The notes: generated by a model from the letters alone, not told the origin. A stretch of DNA of 64,000 nucleotides from an uncultured Granulosicoccaceae bacterium (GCA_937965695.1 CALCKW010000059.1:351-64350); one strand, 5' to 3'. Counted from the first letter of the stretch, positions 31,022 to 56,521 are shown. Made by a program: numbers and translations.

Positions 31022-31075
31022 TTGTTCTCCATTCTCGCGGCCCTAAAAATGGCGCGCGCCAAGTTATTTTTTAAT

Positions 31076-31861: not shown

Positions 31862-32001
31862 AAAAGTGCTTTTTATCTTTCGGTGTTAGGCATTATACTT
31901 AATTCGGAACAATGTTCCATTTTTGATTTAAGGATGACATGAGAATTTCAAATCATGCGTGCTGCCGTTTGACTCGGCCACAGCAGAGAGCGCTCTAATA
32001 C

Positions 32002-38262: not shown

Positions 38263-38356
38263 TTGTAAGAAGTATCGTTTTTTATCCGGACAACAGGTGT
38301 TGTCCAAGAACCGACGGGCAGGACTATGCCCGCATAATGACTCACTTAGGAGAGTA

Positions 38357-39607: not shown

Positions 39608-39619
39608 GGCTTAGCCCGA

Positions 39620-39648
39620 GATGGGTCGCTCTGACCCATCTTTTTTAA
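39620..39648 (+). terminator. Rho-independent terminator after the sugar SBP gene
   Basis: The sequence GATGGGTCgctctGACCCATC is followed by TTTTTTAA. Confidence 0.5.
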
Positions 39649-39649
39649 C

Positions 39650-40633: not shown

Positions 40634-40634
40634 C

Positions 40635-41589: not shown

Positions 41590-42729
41590 TTACCTGCCTG
41601 ACGGACTCTCACTCGGTGAAAGTTTTTTACGCTTTCCCAGCTTAAAGCGATCGGCTGTTGCGTATTCGCCTGCGGCGACACCGGCAGCAAAATCGCCAAA
41701 CACTGGGCCATGCTTGAACAGGTGGCCTGAACAACCACCGACCATCAACACCTTGTCGTGGGCAGGATGCCAGTCAACGATAAAATGCGTGTCAGGTGTA
41801 AGGATGATCTGATTGAACTTGCTGTCGACCACGCGCTCTCCCTCAAGACCAGGAAGGCGCTTACGGATGTATTGGCGTGTGCGGTCAATGGTGGAGCGGC
41901 GAATGAGTCGCTCGTCGTTATCTAGGTCAATTTTGTCCGGGATAACGACCGCTGCTTTAACACCGTGACCCTCCACTGAAGGCATACCAAAGCTGCCCTG
42001 ACCGTGGTCAATCCAGCAAGGCATATTGCTGTGGTCGTAACGCTCATTTCCAGCAGGCGTAGCGGTATAGAGTACATTGACACCTACCACCGTACTGATT
42101 GGTTTGATGGTGCGTGGAAACATATCAGCCATCCATGGCCCCGTAGCGATGATAATGCGATCCGCTTGCATGCGCTTGCCATCCAGCAGCGGGTATTCGT
42201 CGGCGTCTGTGCTGACAGCACCACGTTTGACGACACCCCCCAATTTCTGAAACAACTGCACCGCGGAAATAACCGCGCGGTGAGCCATTAGCAAGCCTGC
42301 CTCTGGTTCGTATATACCGTAAGCGATGTCATCGCTCTTGAACTGCGGAAATCTCACCGCCAGTTCACGTTGATCAAAGCGGTGGTGAGGGACACCCAGC
42401 TTGGAGAACGTTTCGCAGGTAGCGTCCTCCCAGTCGCAGTGCCCAGCGGTTGCCAAAATGAGGGCCCCGCATTCGTAGTAAAGGCGCTGTCCTGTTTCCT
42501 CTTGCAATTCAAGCCACTGCAGGCGTGCTTCTCGAGCCCAACGCGTGTAGAACTCGTCGCGGCCGTGAATGGCACGGATGACCCGGTTGTAATCGGTTGA
42601 CGACGCGCGCGGATGGCCTGGCTCCCATTTGTCGATCAACGTAACAGAGTGTCCTCGTCGCTGCAGAGATAGGGCGGTCATGGTGCCTGCGATACCGGCA
42701 CCCACCACAATAATGTCGTTGAAATTCAT
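41590..42729 (-). CDS. FAD-dependent oxidoreductase, DAO family (sarcosine-oxidase-beta / gamma-glutamyl-amine oxidase PuuB / opine-oxidase-like)
   Basis: The start is at MNFNDIIVVGAGIAGTMTALSL, a dinucleotide-binding motif, and the ORF is about 380 aa. It is divergent from the GS-like gene and shares the palindrome-bearing intergenic region. Confidence 0.75.
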   Translation of the reverse strand: MNFNDIIVVGAGIAGTMTALSLQRRGHSVTLIDKWEPGHPRASSTDYNRVIRAIHGRDEFYTRWAREARLQWLELQEETGQRLYYECGALILATAGHCDWEDATCETFSKLGVPHHRFDQRELAVRFPQFKSDDIAYGIYEPEAGLLMAHRAVISAVQLFQKLGGVVKRGAVSTDADEYPLLDGKRMQADRIIIATGPWMADMFPRTIKPISTVVGVNVLYTATPAGNERYDHSNMPCWIDHGQGSFGMPSVEGHGVKAAVVIPDKIDLDNDERLIRRSTIDRTRQYIRKRLPGLEGERVVDSKFNQIILTPDTHFIVDWHPAHDKVLMVGGCSGHLFKHGPVFGDFAAGVAAGEYATADRFKLGKRKKLSPSESPSGR

Positions 42730-42763
42730 TAATGTTCCAAAAAAACGTTGCAATTCGCGTTGA

Positions 42764-42780
42764 TTGAATACAGTATACAA
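42764..42780. promoter_or_regulatory. 17-bp near-palindrome TTGAATAC-A-GTATACAA, a candidate GntR-type operator in the divergent promoter region of the DAO gene and the BMC operon
   Basis: I read this directly from the sequence. A nearly identical element, cTGTATAC-A-GTATACAA, lies at 55538..55554. Confidence 0.45.
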
Positions 42781-42853
42781 AAACGCGAAAATGAGCAAGA
42801 TAAAGCATCGGATAGATGTATAGTAACGGTAAATCAACTCGGAGAGGTCGCAT

Positions 42854-44149
42854 ATGAATCAGCTGGATCCCACACTGCCTGAGGGTATTCACACTGTCGC
42901 CATGGGCATTGGAGACGCCAACGGCATCATGCGTGGCAAACGGATTCCCGCCAGTCATTGGAAATCGATCTGTGACGGGGGATGCACTATGTCACTCGCG
43001 ACCTTCGCTATTGATATGACGTGTGATGTTTGGGACACGCCCTATGTCAATTTCGACAACGGTTATCCGGATATGCATATTTTTCCGATCTCTCAGCCCA
43101 AAGAATGCCCGTGGGAGCCAGGGGTGGCCGTGTGTATGGCACAGGCCGTTGGCACAGACCATAAACCTGTGCCAATAGATCCTCGAAATGCGCTTGTTCG
43201 ACAGGTAGAGCGCGCACGAGAGATGGGTTTTGAAGTGAGTGTGGGGACAGAGCTGGAGTTTTATTTGCTTGACCCAGAAACTAAGATGCCTAAAGACGCA
43301 GGCATTGGTGTCTACAGCTTGGTGCGGGCTGCTGAGCTTGAACATGTGCTCGGGCCGATTCGCAATGGCTTGGTCGAAGTGGGTATTCCTATAGAACAAT
43401 CCAATCCCGAGTATGCCGCTGGTCAGGTGGAAGTGAATATTCGCTTTGACGAGGCACTGTTAGCCGCCGATCGTGTCGTGATGTTTCGCAATCTGGTGAA
43501 AGAACTTTCAATGCATCACGGCTACTTGGCAACGTTCATGTCCAAGCCCTTTTTGGAAGAGTCGGGTAGTGGCTTTCACACCCATTACTCGCTGTGGCGA
43601 GACGGTAAAAATCAGTTCAGTGATGATGGCAAGTTTAACCAACTCGGTCGTCATTTTGTGGCGGGCTTGCAAAAAAGAATGGCGGAGATGGCGCTTGCTT
43701 CAGCGTCTAACCCCAATGCCTATCGCCGACGTCAGCCATATACTTTTTGCCCGACCAATACCAGTTGGGGCCCCGACAATCGCACGGTGGGTTTGCGCGT
43801 GATCGAAGGCTCTGAAAGTGCTGCTCGTATCGAAAAACGTGATGGATCTGCAGATTGCAATCCTTATTACTTGCTCGCTTGCGAGTTGGCGGCGGGCCTG
43901 GATGGTATCGAGGCTGGCGAGGAGCCGTCTGAAATGACCACGGGCAATGCCTATGAATCCGAGACTGAAGGTCTTATCCCCGCTGACATGGCCACTGCAA
44001 TAGCCTTGGCGAAAGAGTCAACGTTTATGCGTGACGTTATGGGTGAAAGCGGGCTTCAGATCATGATTCAACAAGCAGAGCGAGAACTCGAATTCATCGC
44101 GACACCAATATCACCGGTAGAGATTGAGCGCTACCTTGGAAACTTTTAA
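42854..44149 (+). CDS. Glutamine-synthetase-family ligase (gamma-glutamyl-amine synthetase; GmaS/PuuA/IpuC-like)
   Basis: The ORF is 431 aa with a GS catalytic-domain pattern (…EVNIRFDEAL…GSGFHTHYSLW…NPYY…). Its stop overlaps the start of the BMC vertex gene (TAATG). Confidence 0.75.
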   Translation: MNQLDPTLPEGIHTVAMGIGDANGIMRGKRIPASHWKSICDGGCTMSLATFAIDMTCDVWDTPYVNFDNGYPDMHIFPISQPKECPWEPGVAVCMAQAVGTDHKPVPIDPRNALVRQVERAREMGFEVSVGTELEFYLLDPETKMPKDAGIGVYSLVRAAELEHVLGPIRNGLVEVGIPIEQSNPEYAAGQVEVNIRFDEALLAADRVVMFRNLVKELSMHHGYLATFMSKPFLEESGSGFHTHYSLWRDGKNQFSDDGKFNQLGRHFVAGLQKRMAEMALASASNPNAYRRRQPYTFCPTNTSWGPDNRTVGLRVIEGSESAARIEKRDGSADCNPYYLLACELAAGLDGIEAGEEPSEMTTGNAYESETEGLIPADMATAIALAKESTFMRDVMGESGLQIMIQQAERELEFIATPISPVEIERYLGNF

Positions 44150-44442
44150 TGCGCTTGGCTAATGTCACAGGCACTGTCACAGCGACAGTCAAATCTCAGT
44201 CGCTAACTGGGTTGAAGTTTTTGCTGGTGGACTATACAGACGCCGGCGGCAAAGTTATCGATGCGGCACGTGTTGTTGCGGACGATGTTGGTGCCGGCGT
44301 AGGTGACCAAGTCATTGTCAGCGAAGGATCAGCCGCACGATTACCCAATGGCATGGCAGGCTTAGCGGTGGACGCGACGGTTTTGGCCATTGTGGACGAG
44401 GTTAAAACAAAGGCAAGAAGGGCGGCAGCCAAGTCCGGCTGA
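44149..44442 (+). CDS. Bacterial microcompartment vertex protein (BMC-P; EutN/CcmL/PduN family)
   Basis: The sequence MRLANVTGTVTATVKSQSLTGLKFLLVDY…VGAGVGDQVIVSEGSAARL… has the typical EutN/CcmL pattern. The ORF is 97 aa. Confidence 0.85.
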   Translation: MRLANVTGTVTATVKSQSLTGLKFLLVDYTDAGGKVIDAARVVADDVGAGVGDQVIVSEGSAARLPNGMAGLAVDATVLAIVDEVKTKARRAAAKSG

Positions 44443-44557: not shown

Positions 44558-44866
44558 ATGGCGACAAAACAAGCACCCGGGCAGTCAGCACTGGGCATGA
44601 TCGAGACACGGGGTTTGGTAGCAGCGGTTGAAGCGGCCGACGCAATGGTAAAAGCAGCTAACGTCACTATCGTAGGGCAAACCAAGGCTGGTGGTGGACT
44701 GATCACAATCCTAATCCGCGGCGAAGTCGGTGCTGTTAAAGCTGCAGCTGATGCTGGTGCCAATGCTGCAAATAAAGTGGGTGATGTTGTGGCCGTCCAC
44801 GTCATTCCGCGACCACACGATGAAGTCGAAGGAATTTTGAGCGCACTCGGCGGTGGCGGCGAGTAG
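44558..44866 (+). CDS. Bacterial microcompartment hexamer shell protein (BMC-H; PduA/EutM/CcmK family)
   Basis: The canonical Pfam00936 pattern is present: [58 protein letters not shown]…VHVIPRPH. The ORF is 102 aa. Confidence 0.9.
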
Positions 44867-45035: not shown

Positions 45036-46244
45036 ATGAGCGACGTGGACTTCGAGCGCTTCACCCAGTCTCTGGGTGTTCAAACGTCAGGAGCAAGCGC
45101 TGCTACTTCGGCGAAACGTTTTGAGCGCGCATGCGTATTGGGTGGAGACAGCGATGCCTGGTTGTTGGCGGCAATTTGTGTGGCCAATGACACTCCGGTG
45201 AAATTGTTTTCTGCCTACGCTGCTGAGCTTGACCCACTGCGCTCAGCCGGTGGTGTGACACTGCGAGGCGCTGGACCCATAGGAACTGTCGCACTAGATC
45301 AAAGTAAGTCTGCAAGCATTGAGACAACCACGGTGCTTGATTCAGCTGTCAATGACAGCGATATCATCTTTTTAACTGGGCCAGTGCACAAACTGCGCAC
45401 CTGGGCGATGGTGTTGGCAGGTCATCTGCGTGATGGTCAGGTCGTTGTCGTTTTGAATGCTCGTACATTTGGCGCTTTAGAGACTCGAAGTTTGTTGAGG
45501 CTAGGTGGTAGTACGGCAGATTGCACTATCGTCGAGTTGCAAGGTGCACCTTGGTGGTTAGCTGCTTCAGGCACCCAACTGCAACTTTCAAAACGGACGG
45601 CCCCATTGGCGGCCACGCTTCCAGCTCGGCGCGAGCATGTGCTTCAGGGTTTGCAGGCTTTGATTGGTAAAATACAACCATGTACCTCAACACTCTACAG
45701 CAGTTTTGGAGATTGCAGTGGTGTTGTGGAATTACCTGCATTGGTGCTAGGCGGTCCGTTCAATCCCAACGGGGGACCAGCTGTTCCGGATGGTGCAAAC
45801 GCACTGCCTGTACATCAGAATTTTCATAACCTATTTGGTGAAAGCCATCGGCTTGTAGCCTCGCAATTGCTCGACGAACGTCGTTTGGTGGCCTCCAAGT
45901 TTGGTGTGCGAGATCTACCAAATCTTGAGTTGGCATTGAGCGACTATGCAGGCGGGGTTGAAGCAGATGATTCACGCGCAATTCCCAACTTGCAGCAAAG
46001 CAGAGAGATGCTCCGCTGTGCAGTAATTGCGTCGCTATTGCCATTGCAAAGTGCTGCGCAGTTGGCGGGTGTTGCAGTTCCTGTAACGCAGGCGATGACG
46101 ACACTGGGTAGCAGTTTGCTCGACGCTGATTTAACGGCGGCTGGACGATGGCTCGAAAGTTTGGGTGTGGCCAGTACGAGTTTCGATGATTGCAAGCGAT
46201 CTTTAGCTGAACTAATAGACGGAGAATCTAGCGGTGGACGCTGA
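45036..46244 (+). CDS. Opine-dehydrogenase-like (octopine/nopaline DH family) protein with N-terminal amphipathic-helix-plus-linker extension
   Basis: It is collinear with Arthrobacter-type opine dehydrogenase. The matching pairs are DSDIIFLTGPVHKLRTWAMVLAGHLRDGQVVVVLNARTFGALETRSLL versus DADVILIVVPAIHHASIAANIASYISEGQLIILNPGATGGALEFRKIL, and LLDERRLVASKFGV versus VDAERIAIAKAFDL. The GxGxxG motif is replaced by GGDSDAW. The first ~30 aa (VDFERFTQSL plus a GASAATSA linker) are extra. This assignment is by recalled homology and is not searched. Confidence 0.5.
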   Translation: MSDVDFERFTQSLGVQTSGASAATSAKRFERACVLGGDSDAWLLAAICVANDTPVKLFSAYAAELDPLRSAGGVTLRGAGPIGTVALDQSKSASIETTTVLDSAVNDSDIIFLTGPVHKLRTWAMVLAGHLRDGQVVVVLNARTFGALETRSLLRLGGSTADCTIVELQGAPWWLAASGTQLQLSKRTAPLAATLPARREHVLQGLQALIGKIQPCTSTLYSSFGDCSGVVELPALVLGGPFNPNGGPAVPDGANALPVHQNFHNLFGESHRLVASQLLDERRLVASKFGVRDLPNLELALSDYAGGVEADDSRAIPNLQQSREMLRCAVIASLLPLQSAAQLAGVAVPVTQAMTTLGSSLLDADLTAAGRWLESLGVASTSFDDCKRSLAELIDGESSGGR

Positions 46245-47613
46245 TTTAAGATCAATACAAGCAGCACGTGAGGCGGCCGATAAGGCTTTCACCGCATGGC
46301 AGACTTTTAAAAACACGGACCCAGCACAGATTGATGAAATAGTGCAGGCGATGGCGCGTGCCATTGAGCCTGAGGCCCTACGCTTGGCTGAGCTAGCGGT
46401 CGAAGAAACGGGTTACGGGAATGTGCCGGATAAACGCATAAAAAATCTGTTTAATTCTCTTTCAGTGGCTGAATGGCTGCGCGACATTAAGACGCTGGGC
46501 TTGTTGTGGCAGGATGAGCGAACCAAAATTGCCGCAATCGGTGAACCGATGGGTTTGGTGGCAGCGTTGATCCCGGTGACAAATCCCACATCGACCATTA
46601 TTTATAAGGTTTTGTCGGCTGTTAAGGCTGGCAACGCTATTGTTTGCGCGCCGCATCCACGTGGGGTCAAAAGCGGTGTTGCAACCGTAGAAATCATGGC
46701 GCGTGTTGCCGAGCAAATGGGTGCGCCTAAGGGACTCATTCAGTGTTTGGATCAAGTGACAAACCAAGGCACTGCTGAACTCATGAAACATCGACGTACG
46801 TCGGTGGTTATGGCTACCGGTGGACCGGCCATGGTGCAGGCCGCTTATTCATCTGGTAAGCCAACTCTGGCTGTTGGAGCAGGTAATGTGCCTTGTTATG
46901 TCCATGCCTCAAAAAAATCGGAACTAGCCGAGGTCGCTGAACAAATATTGACCTCTAAGAGCTTTGACTACGGCACCGCTTGTGTCTCGGAGCAGGCGAT
47001 TGTTGTCGATCGTGAAATTGCCGGGCAGTTGCGGCATGAGATGCGTATGCGTGGTGGTTATTTTTGCACCGCTTCCGAAGCTGAGCGTTTGGCAAAAGTG
47101 ATCTTTACGCCAAATAACAGCATGAACCCAAACAATGTAGGTCAATCACCTGAGAGTTTGGCTTCGCAGGCGGATATCCAAATTCCACCCAATTGCCGCG
47201 CTCTTATTGCCGATCAAAGTGAAATAGGCTGGCATGCTCCCTTGTCCGCAGAGAAATTAAACCCGGTGTTGGCTTGGTACGAAAGCAAAGACAGCGACGA
47301 GGGCATCGACATCTCTGAGCGGATCGCTAAGTTTGGCGGTTGGGGCCACAGTGCGGTGGTGCATTCAAATGATCCCGGCATTGTGAGTCAGTACAGCCGC
47401 CTGCCCGTTGGGCGTGTGCTGGCCAACACACCCGGTATTTTGGGTGGTATGGGATTCTCGACGGATCTAGAACCGAGTTTCATGCTGGGAACAGGCACCT
47501 CTTCTGGCTCCATTGTTTCTGACAATGTGACAGCCTTGCATTTGATTAATATAAAACGTGTCGCTTGGCAAAATAGGCCATGGCGAGACATCTATGATAT
47601 CTACGGAGAATAA
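46234..47613 (+). CDS. CoA-acylating aldehyde dehydrogenase (EutE/PduP-type metabolosome signature enzyme)
   Basis: The ORF is 459 aa in the ALDH superfamily. It has the BMC-AldDH-style N-terminal region (…FKNTDPAQIDEIVQAMARAIE…) and a catalytic Cys context (GTACVSEQ). It overlaps the upstream gene by 11 nt and sits between shell genes. Confidence 0.75.
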   Translation: MDADLRSIQAAREAADKAFTAWQTFKNTDPAQIDEIVQAMARAIEPEALRLAELAVEETGYGNVPDKRIKNLFNSLSVAEWLRDIKTLGLLWQDERTKIAAIGEPMGLVAALIPVTNPTSTIIYKVLSAVKAGNAIVCAPHPRGVKSGVATVEIMARVAEQMGAPKGLIQCLDQVTNQGTAELMKHRRTSVVMATGGPAMVQAAYSSGKPTLAVGAGNVPCYVHASKKSELAEVAEQILTSKSFDYGTACVSEQAIVVDREIAGQLRHEMRMRGGYFCTASEAERLAKVIFTPNNSMNPNNVGQSPESLASQADIQIPPNCRALIADQSEIGWHAPLSAEKLNPVLAWYESKDSDEGIDISERIAKFGGWGHSAVVHSNDPGIVSQYSRLPVGRVLANTPGILGGMGFSTDLEPSFMLGTGTSSGSIVSDNVTALHLINIKRVAWQNRPWRDIYDIYGE

Positions 47614-47615
47614 GC

Positions 47616-48242
47616 GTGGCGAGTAAAATTACTATACGAGCGTTGATGCAGATCGACCGCTTGCAGCCAAAATTTGCTGCCTACAACGGTGCAACGGTAC
47701 AAGGTTCTGTGCCGCTCGCGGGCGATACCGTGCTTATTGGTGAGTTTGCACCTGGGAATGGGGTGTTTACCTTAATTGATAAGGCGCTGAAAGCGAGCGC
47801 TGTTGAGGCTACTTCGCAGTTGGTCGAGCGCGAGTTTGGTTTTTTTATTCTTCGTTCTACGTCTAACGCGGAAGTGAGTGCGGCGAGAGATGCCATTCTC
47901 TCGGAGTTAGGCGCAAGCATGGAATCGCGTATCAAGCCTCAGCTTGAGTCTACTCAAATCATAACCTCCGTTGAGCCCTATCAAGCCCAATTGATTAATA
48001 AGTGGCGTAAAGGCGCATTGCTGGTTCCTGGCCAGACACTGGGTATTGTTGAGTGCTCGCCAGCGGCTTATATCTCTGTTGCGGCCAACGAAGCTGAAAA
48101 GGCAGCTCACATAGATATTGTAGAAGTGAGGGCGGTAGGACGTTTTGGTCGTTTGTTTATTTCTGGTGGTGAAGACGATGTGAAGACCGCCATCGCAGCC
48201 GCGAGCAAAGCCATTGAAGCAATGGATGGGCAGTCGGCCTAA
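47616..48242 (+). CDS. Tandem-BMC-domain shell protein (BMC-T, PduT-like)
   Basis: The ORF is 208 aa. The second half (TLGIVECSPAAYISVAANEAEKAAHIDIVEVRAVGRFGRLFISGGEDDVKTAIAAASKAIE) is a clear BMC domain. The first half is a more divergent BMC-like domain. Confidence 0.6.
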   Translation: MASKITIRALMQIDRLQPKFAAYNGATVQGSVPLAGDTVLIGEFAPGNGVFTLIDKALKASAVEATSQLVEREFGFFILRSTSNAEVSAARDAILSELGASMESRIKPQLESTQIITSVEPYQAQLINKWRKGALLVPGQTLGIVECSPAAYISVAANEAEKAAHIDIVEVRAVGRFGRLFISGGEDDVKTAIAAASKAIEAMDGQSA

Positions 48243-49423
48243 TGGCGGATTTGGTCAGCGATGCGGATGTCATTGCCGCTCATCGTCGAGGGCGGATGGT
48301 GATAGAAATCGTACCGGGAACGATTGTTACACAGCAAGCTCGTGATACTGCAGCGCGGCTGGGCGTCTCGCTACACGAGGGTTTGCTGGAGCGTCCTCAA
48401 GCGCCTCGCACTGATGGCAATGTGAGTTTGAGGCGTAACTTATGGCGTCGTAACCCTGGCTGGATTTCACCGCTAAATAAACCGACACCACGTGCACGCC
48501 GTATAAAAAAGTTAGCACTGATAGGTGCTGGCGGGGTAGGTGCCAATATTGCGCATTTGGTGTGCAATGCTCACTCAGCTGATCTAGTGTGCTTAATAGA
48601 TGTGGTGCCGGGCTTGGCAGAATCTGTCGCTTTGGACCTTGAGCATGCCACCGGTGTCAATCGATCTGCAACACGCGTCAGTGGTGGAGAATCGCTGCAA
48701 GCGGTTGCGGGTGCTGAAGTGGTTGTTGTTACAGCAGGGCGACCGCGTACACCGGGTATGGGTCGCAGTGATCTGCTGGATATTAACCGACGTGTTATCC
48801 GAACGGCAGCTCAGGCGATCAGTGAGCATGCACCAGAGGCGATTGTTATTGTTGTCACCAATCCCCTCGACGAGATGACCGTTGAAATGCTTCGCGCAAC
48901 AGGATTTCCGAGACAGCGAGTGCTTGGCATGGCCGGCACACTTGACAGCAGCCGGTTCCGCCGTGCACTAGCAAAAGAAGCGGGTGTTGCGGTGGCTGAT
49001 GTAGAAGCCATAACACTCGGCAGCCATGGCGATGAAATGACGCCAATCACTTCTCGCGCCCGTATTCGCGGTCGTACGTTAGAGACTGTGTTGTCGCAAG
49101 AGCAAATAGACGCCTGCGCAAAAGATGCCGTCACCGGTGGAGGGCAGGTAGTAGCACTGCGCAAGACGGGTTCAGCGACTGTTGCGCCTGCACACTCAAC
49201 CGTAGAACTCATTGACCACATCCGAGGTGCACTGAATGGCGCTGTGCCAGTCTCGGTAATGCTAGAAGGCGAATACGGAATAACTGGCGTAGTTCTAGGG
49301 GTCCCTTGCTTGATTGGTGCTAGCGGTGTGTTGGAGGTAGAAGAGCTGGCCTTAAATGAATCTGAAAGTCAGATGCTTCACGCGGCGGCGCAAGCGATTA
49401 CAGAGCGATTGAACGATGCCTGA
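48242..49423 (+). CDS. Lactate/malate dehydrogenase-family NAD-dependent 2-hydroxyacid dehydrogenase with ~90-aa N-terminal extension
   Basis: The LDH/MDH core begins at about aa 95: LALIGAGGVGANIAHL, VVVTAGRPRTPGMGRSDLL and GSHGDEMTPI (catalytic His). The preceding 90 aa (MADLVSDADVIAAHRRGRMVIEIVPGTIVTQQARDTAARLGVSL…) are not part of the LDH fold. The start overlaps the BMC-T stop (TAATG). Confidence 0.75.
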   Translation: MADLVSDADVIAAHRRGRMVIEIVPGTIVTQQARDTAARLGVSLHEGLLERPQAPRTDGNVSLRRNLWRRNPGWISPLNKPTPRARRIKKLALIGAGGVGANIAHLVCNAHSADLVCLIDVVPGLAESVALDLEHATGVNRSATRVSGGESLQAVAGAEVVVVTAGRPRTPGMGRSDLLDINRRVIRTAAQAISEHAPEAIVIVVTNPLDEMTVEMLRATGFPRQRVLGMAGTLDSSRFRRALAKEAGVAVADVEAITLGSHGDEMTPITSRARIRGRTLETVLSQEQIDACAKDAVTGGGQVVALRKTGSATVAPAHSTVELIDHIRGALNGAVPVSVMLEGEYGITGVVLGVPCLIGASGVLEVEELALNESESQMLHAAAQAITERLNDA

Positions 49424-49832
49424 TCCTGTTTTGTTGAAAGCGGCAGGCGGTGGTCGATTTGAAAAAATTGGCGCCTACGCGCGAGCGCGTCGCGTGGGCC
49501 CTTTTGTGTATGTGGCAGGCACGACTGCGATAGCGTCAAACGGGCTACTGCACGCACCCGGTGACACTTACGCACAAACGCTTTTTATCTTTGAACGCAT
49601 AGAGCAAGCATTGGCCGATGTACAAGCTGAGATGCGACATGTGGTCCGCACCCGAGCATTTTTTAGCGAAATCGCCAACGGTGGCGATTTCGTTCGTGCG
49701 CATGGTGAGGTTTTTACGGGTATCGAACCCGTCACCAGTGGCGTCGCCGCTGGATTGACAACCCCGGGCATGATGATTGAAATCGAAGTGGATGCTTTAG
49801 TCCACGACACCCAAGGAAATATACAGTGGTGA
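49416..49832 (+). CDS. RidA/YjgF/TdcF-family reactive enamine/imine deaminase
   Basis: The ORF is 138 aa with a RidA family pattern (…FVYVAGTTA… …TRAFFSEI… …GIEPVTSGV… …IEIEVDALV). It overlaps both neighbours. Confidence 0.75.
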   Translation: MPDPVLLKAAGGGRFEKIGAYARARRVGPFVYVAGTTAIASNGLLHAPGDTYAQTLFIFERIEQALADVQAEMRHVVRTRAFFSEIANGGDFVRAHGEVFTGIEPVTSGVAAGLTTPGMMIEIEVDALVHDTQGNIQW

Positions 49833-51706
49833 GCGGCGTTCATAACACCCCATCTGGCGGATGGGCCTCATGGTTCGATCTGCGCAGCCGCGAGTCCCTG
49901 TTGTCTGCGTTTCTACTTTTTGCGATCGTGTGTGTTTTGCTGGCGGCAGCCGCCTACTTTGAACTCGCTAGTCCTCGCTTACTCAAGATTGGCTGCGTCA
50001 ACTTAATCGCTGCATTAGCGCTGGGTCTTTTCAGCGGTTCAACGGGTGTTCTATCTCTCGGACATGTCGCGTTTTTTGGTATTGGCGCCTACGTTAGCGC
50101 GTGGTTCACTTTAATTCCCGCAATCAAAGGCATGCTCTTGCCTGACATGCCAGTTTTTATTCAGCAATCGCAGTGGAGTCTCTGGTTCGCCGTTATTCCA
50201 GCCATCATCGCTGGTCTATTGGCCGGTGTTTTGACTGGTTTCGTGATGCGGCGCTTGCGTGATACTTCCGCCGTTATCGCGAGTTTTGGTTTTTTAGTCA
50301 TTTTTTACCTTTTGTTTATAGGGTTGAAAATTTTTACGAATGGAAAACAATCCCTTTATGCCTTACCCATCGACCAATTGAGTTGGCCGTTAACCATGAC
50401 AGCGATCGCAACGGCTCTGCTTGTCACATTTGCCATACGCGCCAGTGCATTGGGAAGGGCGGCGGAGTCCTTGCGAGATAATGAAGCAGCTGCTCGTTCT
50501 GTTGGCGTAGACGCTGACCGTACCTTCTTTTGGGTGTGGGTCGCCAGTGCTGCACTGATGGCTATGGCTGGCGCCTTGTTTGCGCACTCCATTGGCATCG
50601 CGTCTCCTAGCAGTTTCTATTTAGATAAAACATTCGCTCTTATTGTGATGATAATCGTTGGGGGTTATCGGTCATTGACGGGTTGCGCTCTGGGTGCGGT
50701 GTTAATAACAATCGTTGAAGAATTACTAAAGCACGCAGAAGAATCTTTGGGTGCCCTTGCAGGCCAACAAGTACTGGGCGGTCTTATTGAAATGCCCCGT
50801 GTTTTTGGCCTAACGGCCTTGTGCTTCTCAGCGATTATTTTGTTGGTGTTGTATTTACGCCCAGAGGGCGTGATTGGCTATCGCGAATTGGCGCAAGCAG
50901 GTCTTATAAGACGACTGTTTGGGCGATGGCTCGAACCTGCCAGCAAGGGTGAAGAACAAGTCATCTACTCTGTGCCCAAGGAGTCGGAACTGTCCGCGCA
51001 GTCTTTGGGTAAAAATTATGGCTATTTTAGCGCCATGAGTGACGTGAGCTTTGAAGTAGGACCAGGGGAAATTGTTGGACTGATCGGGCCTAATGGTGCA
51101 GGTAAGAGCACCTTTATCAATGTAATGACCGGGAACCTTTTTGCGAGCTCTGGCGCTATTTTCCTAAACGGAGAAAATGCGACTCAGTGGAGTGCGCATG
51201 ACTTGGCGCGTCGTGGCATGGGCCGTACTTTTCAAAATATTCGGTTATTTGCCTCGCTTAGCACGTTGGACAATGTGCTGACGTCTGTCAACGTTGCCTC
51301 TCCCAAACTATCTCGTGTTGATGCTGAAGTGCTGGCGATGAATTGGCTACGCGAGCTTAATCTAGATCAGCACGCCCTGGAAGCAGGAGGCTCACTAGCC
51401 TATGGCGATCAGAGACGATTAGAAATAGCCCGTGCTTTGGCTTTGGAACCGCATTTCTTGCTGTTAGACGAACCCGCAGCGGGCATGAACGATTCCGAGA
51501 CCCATCAGTTGCAGCAATTGCTTAAAGATATCGTTCAGCGAATAGGTTGCGGTGTCATTTTGATCGAGCACGATATGCCAATGGTCATGGCGCTCTGCGA
51601 CCGACTGGTTGTGCTCAATAAGGGAGAGCAAATTGCCTCTGGCCCAGTGGCCGATGTGCGTAAAGATCCACAAGTTATAGAGGCTTACATCGGGGAATCA
51701 CCTTAA
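49826..51706 (+). CDS. Fused HAAT-family ABC transporter: LivM-like permease domain + LivG-like ATPase domain in one polypeptide
   Basis: The N-terminal ~370 aa are polytopic. The C-terminal ~250 aa carry Walker A ([10 protein letters not shown]), the signature (YGDQRRLEIARALA) and Walker B (LLLDEPAAGM). A GTG start overlaps the RidA stop. Confidence 0.75.
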   Translation: MVSGVHNTPSGGWASWFDLRSRESLLSAFLLFAIVCVLLAAAAYFELASPRLLKIGCVNLIAALALGLFSGSTGVLSLGHVAFFGIGAYVSAWFTLIPAIKGMLLPDMPVFIQQSQWSLWFAVIPAIIAGLLAGVLTGFVMRRLRDTSAVIASFGFLVIFYLLFIGLKIFTNGKQSLYALPIDQLSWPLTMTAIATALLVTFAIRASALGRAAESLRDNEAAARSVGVDADRTFFWVWVASAALMAMAGALFAHSIGIASPSSFYLDKTFALIVMIIVGGYRSLTGCALGAVLITIVEELLKHAEESLGALAGQQVLGGLIEMPRVFGLTALCFSAIILLVLYLRPEGVIGYRELAQAGLIRRLFGRWLEPASKGEEQVIYSVPKESELSAQSLGKNYGYFSAMSDVSFEVGPGEIVGLIGPNGAGKSTFINVMTGNLFASSGAIFLNGENATQWSAHDLARRGMGRTFQNIRLFASLSTLDNVLTSVNVASPKLSRVDAEVLAMNWLRELNLDQHALEAGGSLAYGDQRRLEIARALALEPHFLLLDEPAAGMNDSETHQLQQLLKDIVQRIGCGVILIEHDMPMVMALCDRLVVLNKGEQIASGPVADVRKDPQVIEAYIGESP

Positions 51707-51807
51707 CAGTGGGTTTCTCGTGTTCGGGTAATCTTTTAAATTATTCGAACTAAGTTAGAGCGTTACTTTTTTGCAGTTAATGTAATAAACACCTCGAAGC
51801 AACAGGA

Positions 51808-52989
51808 GTGAGAACGATGATCAAAAACCTACTAGCAGCAGCCGTGGTCGCCAGTGTTGGCATGACCACAGCACACGCAGATGGTCACGCAAAAGATTTC
51901 GTGATTGGCGCTGTCAACGCAAAAACAGGCTTCATGGCCGCATATGACGCACCTTTTATGCAGGGCGTGCAGATGTATATGGACGGTGCCAATGCTGATG
52001 GCGGCTTTATGGGTAAATACCCCATCAAGTTGATCGAACGCGATGATGGCTCAGACGTGCAAAAGTCTACGGTATCTACAGCCGAGTTGCTGCAGTCCGA
52101 AGAGCTGAATCTATTCATTACCTCTGCACTGGCTCCGTATGCCATTTCCGCAGGCAGCCAGGCATTGGCCAAAGACTTGTTAACTGTCCACACCATTGCA
52201 TCACAGCCCACGATTCCGGCGCGTTTGGGTGAAGGCAGTTACTTGGTCATGATGTCCGATGCCCATATGGGCGGTGTTTATGCCAAGTACGCTACTGACA
52301 CGCTCGAGGCTAAAACTGCTTATATCGTGACGAGTGACTTTGACCCCTACACTGAGTTTCTCCCATTGTATTTTAAAGAGAAATTTGAAGCAGCTGGCGG
52401 TAAAGTCATCGGTCAATCTGACTTTGCCTACGATCAGCAAGAGTTCTCATCAGTCGTCTCTGCGATCAAAGCGCTACCCGAACAACCCGATGTCATTATG
52501 GGAATGCCGTTCGATAACGATTTCCCTATCTTTATTAACCAGCTTCGTGCTGCTGGGGTGAAGTCGGTCTACCTGGGTCCAGACACCCTCGATTTGCCTT
52601 CTGTTAAAGGGTTAGGTGATGTCGTTGAAGGGGTGCATTACGTGACCATGGCTGCTCCTTCTAGCAGCGAGGCCGCGGGTGACTTTGTCAAGGCATATGG
52701 CGAGCGGTATGGCAGCGAAGACAGTGCGTATCCAGCGATGGTGGGTTATTCGTTCATGCGTATGGTTGAAGCGGCAGTCAATGCGGCGGGTGGCACGGAT
52801 GCAGCGGCAGTTCGTGCAGCATTTGCTCAGCTAGAAAATGTCGAAACTGAAATTGGTTCCGTCACTTTTAAAGGCTTTGGTGCGTTACCTAATCTTCCGG
52901 TGCATGTGATGCGCATAGAAGGCGGTAAAGGTGTTCATGTCGAGTCTATTTTGTTAGAGGCAGACGAAATACCAACACCACGTTCTTGA
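51808..52989 (+). CDS. HAAT-family periplasmic substrate-binding protein (LivK/UrtA/FmdD-like)
   Basis: A signal peptide (MIKNLLAAAVVASVGMTTAHA) and a PBP1 HAAT-type profile are present. The ORF is about 390 aa. Confidence 0.7.
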   Translation: MRTMIKNLLAAAVVASVGMTTAHADGHAKDFVIGAVNAKTGFMAAYDAPFMQGVQMYMDGANADGGFMGKYPIKLIERDDGSDVQKSTVSTAELLQSEELNLFITSALAPYAISAGSQALAKDLLTVHTIASQPTIPARLGEGSYLVMMSDAHMGGVYAKYATDTLEAKTAYIVTSDFDPYTEFLPLYFKEKFEAAGGKVIGQSDFAYDQQEFSSVVSAIKALPEQPDVIMGMPFDNDFPIFINQLRAAGVKSVYLGPDTLDLPSVKGLGDVVEGVHYVTMAAPSSSEAAGDFVKAYGERYGSEDSAYPAMVGYSFMRMVEAAVNAAGGTDAAAVRAAFAQLENVETEIGSVTFKGFGALPNLPVHVMRIEGGKGVHVESILLEADEIPTPRS

Positions 52990-53078
52990 GGGCGTGATTA
53001 GCGATGGTGTCGGGAATAGGGCCTGGCACCATTGGCTATCCATGCAAGCATGTTTGATAAATTGACAGAGCTTCGATT

Positions 53079-53795
53079 GTGAAAAAAGCAGTGTTAGAGG
53101 TCGAAAATCTGGTTGTTCAATACGGCCAAATTTCTGCGGTGCAAGGGGTCAACCTAACCGTCAATGAAAATGAGTTGGTCACCGTTATCGGGGCTAATGG
53201 TGCCGGGAAGACTTCTACTTTAAATGCCATGATGGGGTTAGTTCCTGCGGCTAGCGGAGAAATTCGCTACAAGGGTGAATCCCTTTTGCACATGCCGGTT
53301 GAAAAGCGCCCAAGTATGGGTATTGCATTTTCACCTGAGGGACGAAGAGTCTTTGGGCCTTTGTCTGTGCGCGACAATTTGCGGGTCGGTGGGAATAGCC
53401 TGCCGGCCTCTCAGGTTGACGGTCGCATTGACGAAATGGTTGAGCGATTTCCTATTTTGGGAGAGCGCCTACAGCAAGCAGCGGGGACGCTTTCTGGTGG
53501 AGAACAGCAGATGTTAGCCATTGCGCGTGCGCTGATGATTTCCCCCGATTTTTTAATTCTCGATGAACCCTCGTTGGGGTTGGCTCCTATTGTCGTCGCA
53601 CAAGTGTTTGAGTTGATCGCTGAGCTTCATGCGGAAGGTGTGGCAATACTATTGGTTGAACAAAACGTTAGAAAAAGCTTGGCTATTGCTGATCGAGCTT
53701 ACGTTATGGAACTGGGACGCTTTGTGCGTGAAGGTGCAGCCGATGAATTGGCTGCAGACCCATCCATAGAAAATAGCTATCTCGGCGCGGCTTAA
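53079..53795 (+). CDS. HAAT-family ABC ATPase (LivF-like)
   Basis: Walker A (GANGAGKTST), the LSGGEQQMLAIARAL signature and Walker B (LILDEPSLGL) are present. A GTG start is likely. Confidence 0.8.
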   Translation: MKKAVLEVENLVVQYGQISAVQGVNLTVNENELVTVIGANGAGKTSTLNAMMGLVPAASGEIRYKGESLLHMPVEKRPSMGIAFSPEGRRVFGPLSVRDNLRVGGNSLPASQVDGRIDEMVERFPILGERLQQAAGTLSGGEQQMLAIARALMISPDFLILDEPSLGLAPIVVAQVFELIAELHAEGVAILLVEQNVRKSLAIADRAYVMELGRFVREGAADELAADPSIENSYLGAA

Positions 53796-53833
53796 AGGCC
53801 GCCTGAATAATTTAGGTTTCTTGGGAGATAGAC

Positions 53834-54721
53834 TTGGACCTCTTTTTACAATTTCTAGTCTCAGTGCTGAGTCTTGGCGGCGTGTATGCGCTACTAGCTT
53901 TGGGGCTGTCTACCGTTTTTGGATTGTTGGGATTTCTCAACTTTGCACACGGTGATCTGATGACAATCTGTGGCTATGGCTTGTACTTTATGCTGGCTGC
54001 GGGATTTGGTTTTGTTCCTGCGGCTACGCTCGCTCTCGCGCTGGCTGCATTGGCAGCAGTTTTAATGGAGCGCTTGGCATTTCGACCGTTGCGTGGTCGC
54101 AACCCGATGACGCTGCTTATTACTTCTTTTGCCCTGTCGTTGGCCTTACATGTTAGCTTTCAGATTTTTATAAGCCCAAAACCTAAGCCCATTCCCGTAC
54201 CAGAGTTTTTGTCAGGTTATTTTACTATTGGTGAAATTTTTATAAGCCGCGCGCAAGTAATCGCTATTGTCGTCTCTGTGTTGTCATTAGTGCTGCTTAA
54301 TCTTTTCGTCAATCGCACGCGCCTCGGCGTAGCACTGCGTGCCGCTGCGGCAGATTTTGATGTAGCGAGAGCTTTTGGCGTAAAGGCTAATCAAGTTATT
54401 GCAATCGCTTTCGCGTTGAGTGGCTTGCTCGCGGGATTGGCAGCATTGGTGTGGATATCACAGCGAGGTGCAGTGTTTCCCACCATGGGATTGACCCCAA
54501 TGGTGAAGGCGCTGATAGCCGTCATTATCGGAGGGCTGTCGAATCCGCGCGGCGCGCTCTTGGGTGGTTTTATGTTGGGCTTATTGGAAGCGGGCTTTCT
54601 ATTTACTCTTCCAGATAGCCTTGTGTTGTACCGGGACGCCTTGGTGTTGCTGGTGTTGATTCTGTTTTTGATGTTTAGGCCTAACGGATTGATTGCGACC
54701 AATCCAGAGCCGATGCGGTAG
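53834..54721 (+). CDS. HAAT-family ABC permease (LivH-like)
   Basis: It is a polytopic protein of 295 aa. Confidence 0.75.
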   Translation: MDLFLQFLVSVLSLGGVYALLALGLSTVFGLLGFLNFAHGDLMTICGYGLYFMLAAGFGFVPAATLALALAALAAVLMERLAFRPLRGRNPMTLLITSFALSLALHVSFQIFISPKPKPIPVPEFLSGYFTIGEIFISRAQVIAIVVSVLSLVLLNLFVNRTRLGVALRAAAADFDVARAFGVKANQVIAIAFALSGLLAGLAALVWISQRGAVFPTMGLTPMVKALIAVIIGGLSNPRGALLGGFMLGLLEAGFLFTLPDSLVLYRDALVLLVLILFLMFRPNGLIATNPEPMR

Positions 54722-54743: not shown

Positions 54744-55409
54744 TTAGCTGTTTAGGATGGCATCCATTTGCAAAGTAAGACCGCCTTCGATGTGATCACG
54801 CATTGCTTCGAAAGCATCGTGACCGTTACCGCTAGCCATCGCATCGATGAGCGGTATGTGATCGCCTAGGGATTTGTCCAGATCAACGTCGTCAATTTTG
54901 GCGAACATACGAAATGAATTGCTGCGGTTCCAGATGGAATCAAACTGTTCTAGCAGAAAACGATTATTAGCTTTTTCAACAATCGCGCGGTGGATGGTGC
55001 GGTTAGCTTCAAAGTAGGCGGAGATGTCGACGCGCTTTATGGACTCTTGCTGCAGCACTAAATTGCGCAGTTGCTCATAGACTGCTTTGTCGTTCCGCTC
55101 GGTGACTAGGCGTGCAGCGAAGCCTTCAATGGCGATTCTCGCCTGATAGATTTCGCGCACTTCAGCGTTGCTGATTTGCCTGATAACAAATCCTGAACGA
55201 CCGGAGGTCTCTAGTACGCCTTCTTGTTCTAGGCGAAGCAACGCCTCGCGTACTGGGGTTCGGCTGACTTGTAACTCGTTTGCAAGCCGCTCTTGCACAA
55301 GGCGCTCGTTGGGAGCGATATCACCGGCGCCTATTGCTATAAGCAATTGCTCGTAGATCTCGTCTGCAAGGCGGGTTTTCTGTACAGAGATGCGTTTGAG
55401 TGTAGCCAT
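54744..55409 (-). CDS. GntR-family transcriptional regulator (FadR/FCD-type C-terminal domain)
   Basis: An N-terminal wHTH (…ERLANELQVSRTPVREALLRLEQEGVL) is followed by a C-terminal all-helical effector domain with His residues. It is divergent from the mgsA-like gene. Confidence 0.8.
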   Translation of the reverse strand: MATLKRISVQKTRLADEIYEQLLIAIGAGDIAPNERLVQERLANELQVSRTPVREALLRLEQEGVLETSGRSGFVIRQISNAEVREIYQARIAIEGFAARLVTERNDKAVYEQLRNLVLQQESIKRVDISAYFEANRTIHRAIVEKANNRFLLEQFDSIWNRSNSFRMFAKIDDVDLDKSLGDHIPLIDAMASGNGHDAFEAMRDHIEGGLTLQMDAILNS

Positions 55410-55537
55410 ATAGAGGTGAGAGTGTTCCTGACAATGGAGCGTGAAATTTAGCTGAACGAGCCGCCTGAGCGGCTTTTAGAGCCAAAAACTGGGTGTTTAA
55501 AAAAACATCATAGCAATGATTGATTGATTCAGGAATA

Positions 55538-55554
55538 CTGTATACAGTATACAA
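55538..55554. promoter_or_regulatory. 17-bp palindrome cTGTATAC-A-GTATACAA, a candidate GntR-type operator between the GntR gene and the mgsA-like gene
   Basis: I read this directly from the sequence. It shares 16/17 positions with the site at 42764..42780, and the 13-mer ATACAGTATACAA is identical in both. Confidence 0.45.
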
Positions 55555-55576
55555 CGTACATTATGAGGGGAATAAC

Positions 55577-56521
55577 ATGTGTGGGATAGCTGGGAGAATT
55601 TTAAATAGCCCTGGCCGTGTCGGTGATGACTTAGTCGATCTGATGGCGGCCCAGTCTCACCGGGGGGCCGACTCGACAGGTTTTGCTGTATACGGGCCGC
55701 CAAGAACCGATGGTTATATCGTTCGCGCGATGGGTTTTGATCGAAGTGCAATGGACTCGGATCTGGCAGACTTTGAGAAGATCTTGCGTCAACACGGCTC
55801 AGACTGGTTGGAAGAGCCAACGTGGAACGGTGGCACTGATAGCCATTACTCAGTACGTGCTGTTATTAAAGACCCTTCAGACATCGCGCAGTGGATAAAA
55901 GAAGCCGATGCTATATGTGAACGTCTCGAGGTGCAATCGCTCGGTCGCTCACTGGAGATTGTCAAGGACACGGGTGATGCGAATGCCGTTGCGGAAAAAC
56001 ATGGTGTTCGTGAAATGGTGGGCACTCATGGATTAGGTCATGCACGTTTGGCCACTGAAAGCTCGGTACTGCCTAATGCCAGCCACCCTTTTTGGGCGCG
56101 ACCGTTCCCCGATGTAGCCATTGTGCACAACGGACAGATTACTGACTACTACACGCAGCGCGATCGCCTAGAGCGCAAGGGTTATCGATTTATGACCCAG
56201 AACGACAGTGAGTTGATTGCCGTATGGGTCTCCGACCAGATGTCGCAGGGGCTCGATAAACACGAAGCGCTGCGCAAGTCGATCGATTCTATTGATGGGG
56301 TATTTACCTTCCTCATTACTGACCCAACCAGCATGGGGTTCGCCAAAGATCGTTTTGCCATGAAACCGCTTGTGACGGTGGAATCTGTAGGTCAATTGTC
56401 CGCTGCAACGGAAGAGCAAGCCGTTCGACGTATCGAGCCTGAAGAATCAGATGTGATCAACTACGACGGTCCTTCAATGACTCGTCTATGGCCGGTTGAT
56501 TCGACGGAGGCTGCAGCATGA
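55577..56521 (+). CDS. Class-II (Ntn) glutamine amidotransferase domain protein (GltB1 / N-methylglutamate-synthase subunit A-like)
   Basis: The start is called at the ATG preceded by GAGGGG, giving MCGIAGRIL… with the nucleophilic Cys at position 2 after Met removal. The ORF is about 314 aa. Confidence 0.7.
   Translation: MCGIAGRILNSPGRVGDDLVDLMAAQSHRGADSTGFAVYGPPRTDGYIVRAMGFDRSAMDSDLADFEKILRQHGSDWLEEPTWNGGTDSHYSVRAVIKDPSDIAQWIKEADAICERLEVQSLGRSLEIVKDTGDANAVAEKHGVREMVGTHGLGHARLATESSVLPNASHPFWARPFPDVAIVHNGQITDYYTQRDRLERKGYRFMTQNDSELIAVWVSDQMSQGLDKHEALRKSIDSIDGVFTFLITDPTSMGFAKDRFAMKPLVTVESVGQLSAATEEQAVRRIEPEESDVINYDGPSMTRLWPVDSTEAAA

Follow-up and report, generated by a model that had tools for sequence, protein, structure and literature searches.

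A 64,000-nucleotide stretch of DNA from an uncultured Granulosicoccaceae bacterium (GCA_937965695.1, CALCKW010000059.1:351-64350; called the window below) carries, at positions 41590 to 44149, a gene for a flavin oxidase of the DAO family and, divergent from it, a gene for a glutamine synthetase (GS)-like ligase that runs directly into a set of bacterial microcompartment (BMC) shell genes. This arrangement raises the question of which substrate the two enzymes handle and how closely their reactions are connected with the shell. The original prediction had likened the pair to PuuA and PuuB, which glutamylate and oxidize putrescine. Our analysis points tentatively to a different answer: the ligase and the oxidase may be part of a conserved, GntR-controlled primary-amine pathway feeding a microcompartment of the MIC2 type, a reading that we hold to be a serious possibility, if still short of probable.

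The ligase and the flavin oxidase

The ligase gene (42854..44149, plus strand; PF00120, E 1.1e-83) encodes a protein of 431 amino acids, which we predict to be an ATP-dependent gamma-glutamyl-amine (amide) synthetase. Relatives of this protein were scanned for in one genome per species; they were present in 340 species, and 80 loci were kept, in which the ligase orthologues show 66-74% identity. In a MAFFT alignment with Escherichia coli GlnA, E. coli PuuA, and the genome's six other PF00120 paralogues, the ligase retained the GlnA residues for metal, ATP, glutamate, and phosphate (E129, E131, E212, E220, H269, H271, E357, R321, R339, R344, and R359). The ammonium site was altered, with Tyr179 replaced by Val (as in PuuA), the flap residue Glu327 by Phe (Tyr in PuuA), Ser53 by Tyr, and Asn264 by Ser, and the amine pocket has hydrophobic residues in place of polar ones; the Asp50 column contains Asp, the N-terminal part of the alignment being less certain. 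Tyr179, the flap Glu327, and Ser53 are replaced in all ligase orthologues examined. In GmaS, the flap residue is Trp (PMC7948447). Furthermore, the match of the ligase to PuuA spanned the whole protein (31.5% identity, E 6e-54), that to GlnA only 198 residues. Judging from the replaced ammonium-site residues and from the full-length match to PuuA as opposed to the partial one to GlnA, the protein looks like a gamma-glutamyl-amine ligase and not a true GS. A bona fide GS active with NH4+ only, which the original prediction had named as the finding that would count against it, is thus unlikely on sequence grounds.

The oxidase gene (41590..42729, minus strand) encodes an FAD-dependent enzyme of 379 amino acids from the family of monomeric sarcosine oxidase (MSOX) and N-methyltryptophan oxidase (MTOX) (PF01266, E 1.6e-44 on the open reading frame 41590-42837). 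A search of the PDB returned 1zov (E 7e-32), and the AF2 model (pLDDT 94.8) aligned by Foldseek with MSOX at a TM score of 0.86-0.88, followed by MTOX, NikD, fructosyl-peptide oxidases, and iminodiacetate oxidase. These close structural neighbors all act on secondary amines of N-substituted amino acids. In MSOX, the carboxylate of the substrate is held by Arg52 and Lys348, and oxygen is activated at Lys265; the equivalents of R49, R52, K265, H345, and K348 are invariant in 62 oxidase orthologues. Because of the MSOX fold and the carboxylate-binding Arg and Lys, the oxidase probably acts on an N-substituted amino acid. Its similarity to E. coli PuuB was not significant by blastp (E 0.18), and a Protein Atlas search returned only generic clusters of FAD oxidoreductases and the sarcosine oxidase family. 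Thus, the ligase looks like a gamma-glutamyl-amine ligase, as the original prediction supposed, but the oxidase belongs to the MSOX family and is no analogue of PuuB.

The shell-linked oxidases also have features of their own. The position of Cys315, which binds FAD covalently in MSOX, is occupied by Asn306 in the window protein and by Asn in 49, Cys in 11, and another residue in 2 of the 62 orthologues; the closest relatives outside MIC2 (identity of 39% or less) retain the Cys. Although the protein is not extended at either terminus compared with MSOX, a conserved C-terminal tail, DRFKxxxRxKLSxxESPSGR (window 41590-41650), is common to the shell-linked oxidases and missing from their nearest outside relatives. 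AF2 modeled this tail as an ordered coil and not as a tethered helix; it could be a docking motif or merely part of the fold.

Both divergent genes are intact, as the original prediction supposed. The oxidase starts at ATG 42729 (MNFNDIIVVGAG), five residues before the Rossmann motif, and the same start is conserved in the 62 orthologues; the TTG at 42837 is an artefact of the caller of open reading frames. The divergent region is therefore 124 bp long (42730..42853) rather than 16 bp, with a median of about 101 bp in 62 related loci. Scans for sigma-70 promoters and terminators in this region and in the region between the first two shell genes gave nothing useful.

At the other end of the ligase gene, the stop codon TAA and the ATG of the gene for BMC-P, the vertex (pentamer) shell protein (44149..44442, plus strand; PF03319, E 4.8e-23), share one base in the sequence TAATG (44147..44151, plus strand). 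Among the 62 related loci in which the BMC-P start could be placed, the two genes overlap in 32 and are 0-4 nt apart in 24 more (56/62 together). BMC-P has no good Shine-Dalgarno sequence, whereas the gene for BMC-H, the major hexamer shell protein (44558..44866, plus strand; PF00936, E 9.5e-28), follows after a 115-nt spacer with a strong AAGGA of its own. The ligase had been described as translationally fused to the shell operon and produced one-to-one with the shell. Translational coupling through the one-base overlap with the vertex gene stands up to inspection, but there is no protein fusion, and the one-to-one ratio does not follow, since the coupled gene is that of a minor vertex protein and the gene for the major shell protein is served by a strong ribosome-binding site of its own. 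The simplest reading is that the overlap would tie translation of the low-copy vertex protein to ribosomes completing the ligase. It says nothing on packaging and does not put the ligase inside the shell. Indeed, the ligase has the same 431 amino acids in shell-bearing loci and in loci without a shell, and it carries no shell-specific extension; a BMC-specific terminal extension with an amphipathic helix, by which an encapsulated cargo would be recognized, is absent.

Distribution, shared operator, and microcompartment type

When the window proteins were mapped onto the related loci, two architectures emerged: 64 shell-bearing loci (plus the window) and 15 shell-less loci. In the former, the order is oxidase (on the minus strand), ligase, BMC-P, BMC-H, an opine-dehydrogenase-like gene, an aldehyde dehydrogenase (AldDH), BMC-T, a malate dehydrogenase (MDH)-like gene, and RidA. 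An oxidase orthologue (61-78% identity) is adjacent to and divergent from the ligase in 62 of the 64 and lies 5 kb away in one; the last locus has no upstream flank. The oxidase accordingly accompanies the ligase in 63/63 shell-bearing loci with enough upstream sequence and in 0/15 shell-less loci, a pairing far beyond chance. An orthologue of the MSOX-type oxidase was not found in any of the five shell-less genomes searched (5/5). Three of these genomes have no BMC domain at all, and the BMC domains of the other two belong to a different BMC type at a different site and do not amount to a MIC2 shell.

The shell-less loci lack not only the shell genes and the MSOX-type oxidase but also the opine-dehydrogenase-like and MDH-like genes; oxidase and opine-dehydrogenase-like gene both occur only alongside the shell. 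(An apparent loss of the latter in locus L032 falls in a 100-N scaffold gap.) In the shell-less loci, the ligase directly follows MgsABC-like genes, and its usual neighbors are a PuuB-like oxidase (compared with E. coli PuuB, 31-32% identity, E ~1e-45), a PuuC-like aldehyde dehydrogenase (32-34% identity, E ~1e-81), and one or two acyl-CoA synthetases, of which one is MbcS-like. RidA is kept in both architectures, the same type of importer as in the window occurs in three shell-less loci (L051, L066, and L071), and a GntR/FCD gene stands beside MgsA in related loci. MgsABC-like orthologues (63-88% identity) were present in or near all tested loci: an MgsC orthologue lies in 32 of the 64 shell-bearing loci, and in 5/5 tested genomes without a nearby copy it was found elsewhere (83-88% identity).

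In the ligase tree, shell-bearing and shell-less members are mixed, at least six switches are forced by well-supported branches, and taxonomy is not followed. On this phylogenetic evidence, the ligase appears to serve the pathway rather than the shell, the shell module having been gained or lost repeatedly. The departure from taxonomy also suggests horizontal spread of the locus within animal-associated habitats. By their record titles, many hosts (loci L008-L087) come from sponges, corals, and bryozoans (Poriferihabitaceae, Ca. Rhodobacter oscarellae, Hoeflea poritis, and a Bugula neritina symbiont) or are Granulosicoccaceae metagenome-assembled genomes (MAGs); cultured strains of Ruegeria, Hoeflea, Phaeobacter, and Microbaculum are also among the hosts. 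Besides, a PuuD-like class-I glutamine amidotransferase gene directly follows MgsC in at least 15 shell-bearing loci (for example, L050:7675-8367). A homologue in the window's own genome (contig C18:155007-155570, minus strand) has an operator-like site with two mismatches about 40 nt upstream.

The operator in question is a 17-bp palindrome, TTGAATACAGTATACAA (consensus YTGWATACWGTATWCAR), at 42764..42780 in the region from which the oxidase gene and the ligase/shell operon diverge. A second copy, CTGTATACAGTATACAA (55538..55554), lies between the gene for a GntR/FCD-family regulator (54744..55409, minus strand; PF00392 and PF07729), which presumably binds these sites, and a divergent MgsABC-like split glutamate-synthase triad (55520..58625, plus strand), identified by Pfam as a class II glutamine amidotransferase, a GXGXG domain, and an FMN synthase domain. 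The called TTG start of the MgsA-like open reading frame precedes this operator, and the true start is probably further downstream. Between the shell operon and the regulator gene, a Liv/HAAT-type ABC importer is encoded (49826..54721, plus strand; Pfam), consisting of a fused permease-ATPase, a substrate-binding protein, an ATPase, and a permease. A PDB search with the importer substrate-binding proteins of both types yielded no informative ligand-bound homologue.

Perfect operator sites number three in the 4.78-Mb genome: the two above and one on another contig (C78:1078-1094). Nearly all related loci have the palindrome, which stands upstream of the genes for the ligase, MgsA, and the importer and, where there is no shell, between those for the PuuB-like and PuuC-like enzymes. 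In five other genomes scanned with at most one mismatch, all sites but one lie inside these loci, and a reversed-pattern control gave 0 sites. The single outlier is directly upstream of a DAO-family gene of 427 amino acids, in a shell-less genome with no oxidase at its locus. The operator shared among these loci argues that the oxidase, the ligase/shell operon, the MgsABC-like genes, and the importer form one compact regulon, in which, on this evidence, a flavin oxidase is an obligatory member.

The third perfect site in the window's own genome (locus L095) lies in the 500 bp that separate an M50 peptidase gene from a divergent liu-type operon for an isovaleryl-CoA dehydrogenase-like enzyme, methylcrotonyl-CoA carboxylase beta and alpha subunits, hydroxymethylglutaryl-CoA lyase, and enoyl-CoA hydratase. 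This site hints at isovaleryl-CoA as the acyl-CoA product of the pathway. We keep this as a lead only: the orientation of the site is ambiguous and fits the peptidase gene as well, and a search out to 1.5 kb from the isovaleryl-CoA dehydrogenase gene turned up no operator in nine other genomes. Immediately upstream of the L095 copy of that gene are two TTTACGTTACGTAAA-like palindromes (L095:1300-1370); they look like operators of the MerR-type regulator LiuR, which we presume them to be.

The remaining genes of the shell operon, all on the plus strand, identify the microcompartment. They encode a protein of 402 amino acids with an opine-dehydrogenase fold and a predicted encapsulation peptide (45036..46244), a CoA-acylating AldDH (46234..47613; PF00171, with NCBIfam scores of 492 bits for EutH_ACDH and 459 bits for the N-terminal part of AdhE), a tandem-domain, CcmP-like BMC-T shell protein (47616..48242; PF00936, NCBIfam CcmP 204 bits), an LDH-like MDH with an N-terminal extension of about 88 residues (48242..49423; PF00056 and PF02866 from residue 90, PRK06223 317 bits, above the cut-off), and a RidA-family imine/enamine deaminase (49416..49832; PF01042). 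The MIC2 type, described from 22 loci (Sutter et al. 2021, Nat Commun 12:3809, PMC8217296, Supplementary Data 2), has an AldDH without encapsulation peptide, an N-terminally extended pfam02866 LDH/MDH, a protein of the 6PGDH-like superfamily with a short helix at its N-terminus, and a pfam00120 GS, and the main text of that work places it among types with "no obvious signature enzyme". The window has the same shell genes (PF03319, PF00936, and a tandem CcmP-like BMC-T) and the same four enzymes. Besides, two of the related loci, those of Ca. Rhodobacter oscarellae (L019) and Chromatiales AB1 (L028), match the window in gene order with 42-83% identity per gene (70-74% for ligase and oxidase), and both Ca. 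Rhodobacter oscarellae/lobularis and Chromatiales AB1 are named MIC2 in the tree files of the catalogue (PMC8217296). The window locus is thus a further member of the MIC2 type. The proposal that it is the first metabolosome with a gamma-glutamylation front end has to be withdrawn in this form, since a pfam00120 GS is already in the published description.

Two of the cargo proteins deserve closer description. No Pfam domain was assigned to the opine-dehydrogenase-fold protein; its AF2 model (pLDDT 90.9) has a helix at residues 3-14 and a low-confidence linker at residues 16-22, and its top Foldseek match was 1bg6 (CENDH, E 6e-23), followed by octopine, pseudopaline, and staphylopine dehydrogenases. 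The MDH-like protein has a GRPRTPG motif with Arg (Arg102-type) at the position that discriminates MDH from LDH; from this residue, it probably reduces oxaloacetate or another dicarboxylic 2-oxo acid. Such a specificity would allow a malate/oxaloacetate shuttle to recycle NAD+ in place of an alcohol dehydrogenase. On the 5' side of the locus lies a galactoside-utilization cluster (29918-41486) that appears unrelated to it, with a MalK-type ATPase, an IclR regulator, a GH36 alpha-galactosidase, a galactokinase, GalT, a GH42 beta-galactosidase, a sugar ABC substrate-binding protein, and two permeases.

A proposed amine pathway and its rivals

The gene identities, folds, active-site residues, co-occurrence, and shared operator given above were computed; from them we infer all chemical steps of the route, its substrate, and the site of oxidase action. 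An amine would be taken up by the Liv-type ABC importer and coupled by the GS-like ligase, at the cost of ATP, to glutamate at its gamma-carboxyl to form a gamma-glutamyl amide. Flavin amine oxidases act poorly on an amide nitrogen of this kind, whereas enzymes of the MSOX family are suited by a secondary amine that bears an alpha-carboxylate. A monoamine would therefore first have to become a secondary amine, a step for the MgsABC-like enzyme, which would shift the amine nitrogen onto the glutamate skeleton to form N-alkyl-L-glutamate. The MSOX-family flavoenzyme would then oxidize the alkyl C-N bond, and hydrolysis of the imine, possibly with the help of RidA, would release glutamate and an aldehyde. 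Finally, the acylating AldDH of the shell operon would convert the aldehyde to an acyl-CoA, with NAD+ probably regenerated by the MDH-like cargo. In the shell-less regulon, the PuuB-like oxidase, the PuuC-like aldehyde dehydrogenase, and the acyl-CoA synthetases would cover the oxidation and the last step in the cytosol.

As to the substrate, several features point weakly to a small hydrophobic amine, perhaps a branched-chain one such as isoamylamine: the hydrophobic ligase pocket, an importer of the Liv type, the acyl-CoA synthetases of the shell-less loci (MbcS-like and PRK12583-type), and, in this genome only, the operator at the liu operon. The hosts, with cultured strains and many MAGs that seem by their record titles to come from sponges, corals, or bryozoans among them, suggest that it may be an abundant marine or host-derived amine. 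Besides, the genome has two other amine systems. Contig C10 carries a canonical methylated-amine cluster (L090:266-13172) with Amt, MgsABC, DmmDABC, GmaS (flap Trp), and formate-tetrahydrofolate ligase; the window ligase is 28.5% identical to this GmaS, and the window MgsA, MgsB, and MgsC are 30%, 31%, and 54% identical to their canonical counterparts. On contig C24, a Puu-like cluster (L093:5573-16169) comprises a PuuB orthologue (43% identity), a PuuE-like aminotransferase, and two PuuA-like ligases, and no operator match was found in it within two mismatches. The shell-linked system is thus the third amine system of the genome, and the presence of the other two argues against methylamine and putrescine as its substrate.

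Several observations weigh against this pathway. The ligase scores below all curated NCBIfam cut-offs, namely GlnA (TIGR00653, 196 bits against 429), type III GS/GmaS (TIGR03105, 213 against 469.6), and GGputSyn (NF045547, 184 against 650, despite the full-length similarity to PuuA), and the oxidase likewise misses every curated cut-off, its best scores being 186 bits for SolA and 173 bits for soxA_mon. The Cys for covalent FAD is gone in most oxidase orthologues, unlike in characterized MSOX and MTOX. Furthermore, the oxidase has no encapsulation peptide, to judge from its MSOX length and coiled tail; if it is cytosolic, the aldehyde would be made outside the shell, contrary to the usual logic of metabolosomes. 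A helix like an encapsulation peptide was found only on the opine-dehydrogenase-fold cargo, which also belongs to a class of secondary-amine enzymes and, from its modeled fold, could be the real generator of the aldehyde. Neither this protein nor the class-I amidotransferase-like gene has a role in the proposed route.

These observations lead to the alternative that the opine-dehydrogenase-fold protein is the true signature enzyme, which would convert N-alkylglutamate and NAD+ to the aldehyde inside the shell, while the flavin oxidase is a cytosolic accessory and the ligase keeps the same role. The oxidase could then, for example, reoxidize an opine-type carrier of reducing equivalents leaving the shell or salvage escaped N-alkylglutamate. 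We consider this unlikely but by no means far-fetched. NAD-dependent cleavage of an N-alkylglutamate to glutamate and an aldehyde is known from the glutamate-forming saccharopine dehydrogenase, opines are N-substituted amino acids and hence of the substrate class of MSOX-family enzymes, and both the oxidase and the opine-dehydrogenase-like gene are strictly linked to the shell. The encapsulation-peptide-like helix, borne by the opine-dehydrogenase-fold protein alone and not by the oxidase, also speaks for it (see also the supplement of PMC8217296). However, opine dehydrogenases move a hydride at the carboxylate-bearing carbon, so that N-alkylglutamate would yield 2-oxoglutarate and the amine and no aldehyde. 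In shell-less loci, moreover, a flavin oxidase is the sole candidate for the oxidation, and its like-for-like exchange for the MSOX-type oxidase is the simpler account.

Both proteins might also act in one scheme. MIC2 would then be the first amine metabolosome with glutamate as a carrier, in which a cytosolic MSOX-type oxidase and an encapsulated opine dehydrogenase form an "opine shuttle" across the shell. We think this quite unlikely; if true, a secondary-amine dicarboxylate would carry substrate or reducing equivalents and replace the recycling by alcohol dehydrogenase and phosphotransacylase of all characterized metabolosomes.

An improbable alternative is the Puu-like route favored by the original prediction, in which the ligase glutamylates a polyamine, the oxidase turns the free amino end into a gamma-glutamyl-aminoaldehyde, and the shell AldDH oxidizes it. 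The full-length alignment with PuuA, the PuuB- and PuuC-like genes of shell-less relatives, and the PuuD-like amidotransferase gene after MgsC in at least 15 loci are in its favor, but the window oxidase is not detectably related to PuuB by blastp and belongs to a family that oxidizes secondary amines, while the genome's separate Puu-like cluster lacks the operator. Besides, this route leaves no role for the MgsABC-like triad or the shell-less acyl-CoA synthetases, the AldDH is of the CoA-acylating type for small aldehydes, and the amine pocket of the ligase is hydrophobic and not polar. With the triad in the regulon and separate Puu-like and GmaS/MgsABC clusters elsewhere, a gamma-glutamyl-aminoaldehyde is unlikely as the substrate of the AldDH.

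It is more improbable still that the ligase is a working GS recapturing ammonia and the oxidase a general amino acid oxidase, with no gamma-glutamyl intermediate shared between them. The intact metal, ATP, and glutamate residues would agree with this, and the catalogue calls the protein a glutamine synthetase (PMC8217296), but Tyr179, the flap Glu327, and Ser53 are replaced throughout the orthologues examined, and the GlnA score is far below its cut-off. A paralogue on contig C51 has the complete canonical set of GS residues and is likely to be the genome's GlnA, whereas the window ligase is tied to MgsABC-like genes even where there is no shell. Finally, a second GmaS/N-methylglutamate-type system for C1 amines, with the shell handling formaldehyde, is scarcely credible: although the ligase and the triad mirror the N-methylglutamate pathway, a canonical Amt-MgsABC-DmmDABC-GmaS cluster is already in the genome, the resemblance of the window ligase, MgsA, and MgsB to its members is low (about 30% or less), MgdABCD and folate-linked enzymes are absent from the regulon, and acyl-CoA synthetases, one of them MbcS-like, would be senseless for C1 units in the shell-less relatives.

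We therefore return to the primary-amine pathway through N-alkylglutamate as our preferred, if tentative, reading. MIC2 is one of many catalogued types with an AldDH but no known source of the aldehyde, and the ligase-oxidase pair, the triad, and the operator offer a concrete pathway that can be tested. Furthermore, the contrast between the shell-bearing and the shell-less regulon shows which enzymes the shell replaces. If the pathway is confirmed, chemistry of the N-methylglutamate type would no longer be confined to C1 amines, and the front ends of metabolosomes would prove more varied.

Comparison with known systems

The text of the MIC2 catalogue gives no function for this type, nor does it speak of the flavin oxidase divergent from the ligase, of the MgsABC-like triad, of RidA, of the importer, or of the common operator (PMC8217296). 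Our literature searches found no paper giving a MIC2 function or tying microcompartments to gamma-glutamyl, N-methylglutamate-type, or N-alkylglutamate chemistry. What is new beyond the catalogue is the residue-level case against a true GS and a PuuB-type oxidase, the strict co-occurrence of oxidase and shell, the exchange of the shell module for PuuB-like, PuuC-like, and acyl-CoA synthetase genes, the genome-wide specificity of the operator, and the paradox of encapsulation.

In the pathways of IpuC (isopropylamine) and of AtdA1 and NpaA1 (arylamines), a GS-like ligase makes the gamma-glutamyl amide of a monoamine before the carbon skeleton is oxidized. There, oxygenases act on the gamma-glutamyl amide and a hydrolase follows, and no microcompartment is involved; the window locus, by contrast, has no oxygenase. 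This comparison also draws on PDB 8wwu, which was among the weaker matches.

The Puu pathway of E. coli (PuuA, PuuB, PuuC, and PuuD) shares with the present system a GS-like gamma-glutamylation followed by flavin oxidation and aldehyde oxidation, and the shell-less relatives have PuuB- and PuuC-like genes. It differs in that the window oxidase has only the DAO superfamily in common with PuuB, that the AldDH is CoA-acylating and encoded in a shell operon, and that an MgsABC-like triad is present. With the MSOX/N-methyltryptophan oxidase family, the window oxidase shares the fold and the residues Arg52, Lys348, Arg49, Lys265, and His345. At about 23-26% identity, however, it has Asn in place of Cys315, does not conserve His269 and Tyr317, and carries the group-specific ESPSGR tail.

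The N-methylglutamate pathway (GmaS, MgsABC, and MgdABCD) likewise unites a GS-like ligase and a split glutamate-synthase triad, here within one regulon. MgdABCD was not found in the window or in the 80 related loci, where only monomeric DAO-family oxidases occur; a monomeric flavoenzyme, MSOX-type in the shell-bearing loci and PuuB-type in the shell-less ones, would take its place, and the downstream enzymes appear suited to an acyl chain and not to C1 units. The logic common to both pathways would be the conversion of an amine to a gamma-glutamyl amide, of the amide to an N-alkylglutamate, and of the latter to an aldehyde and glutamate.

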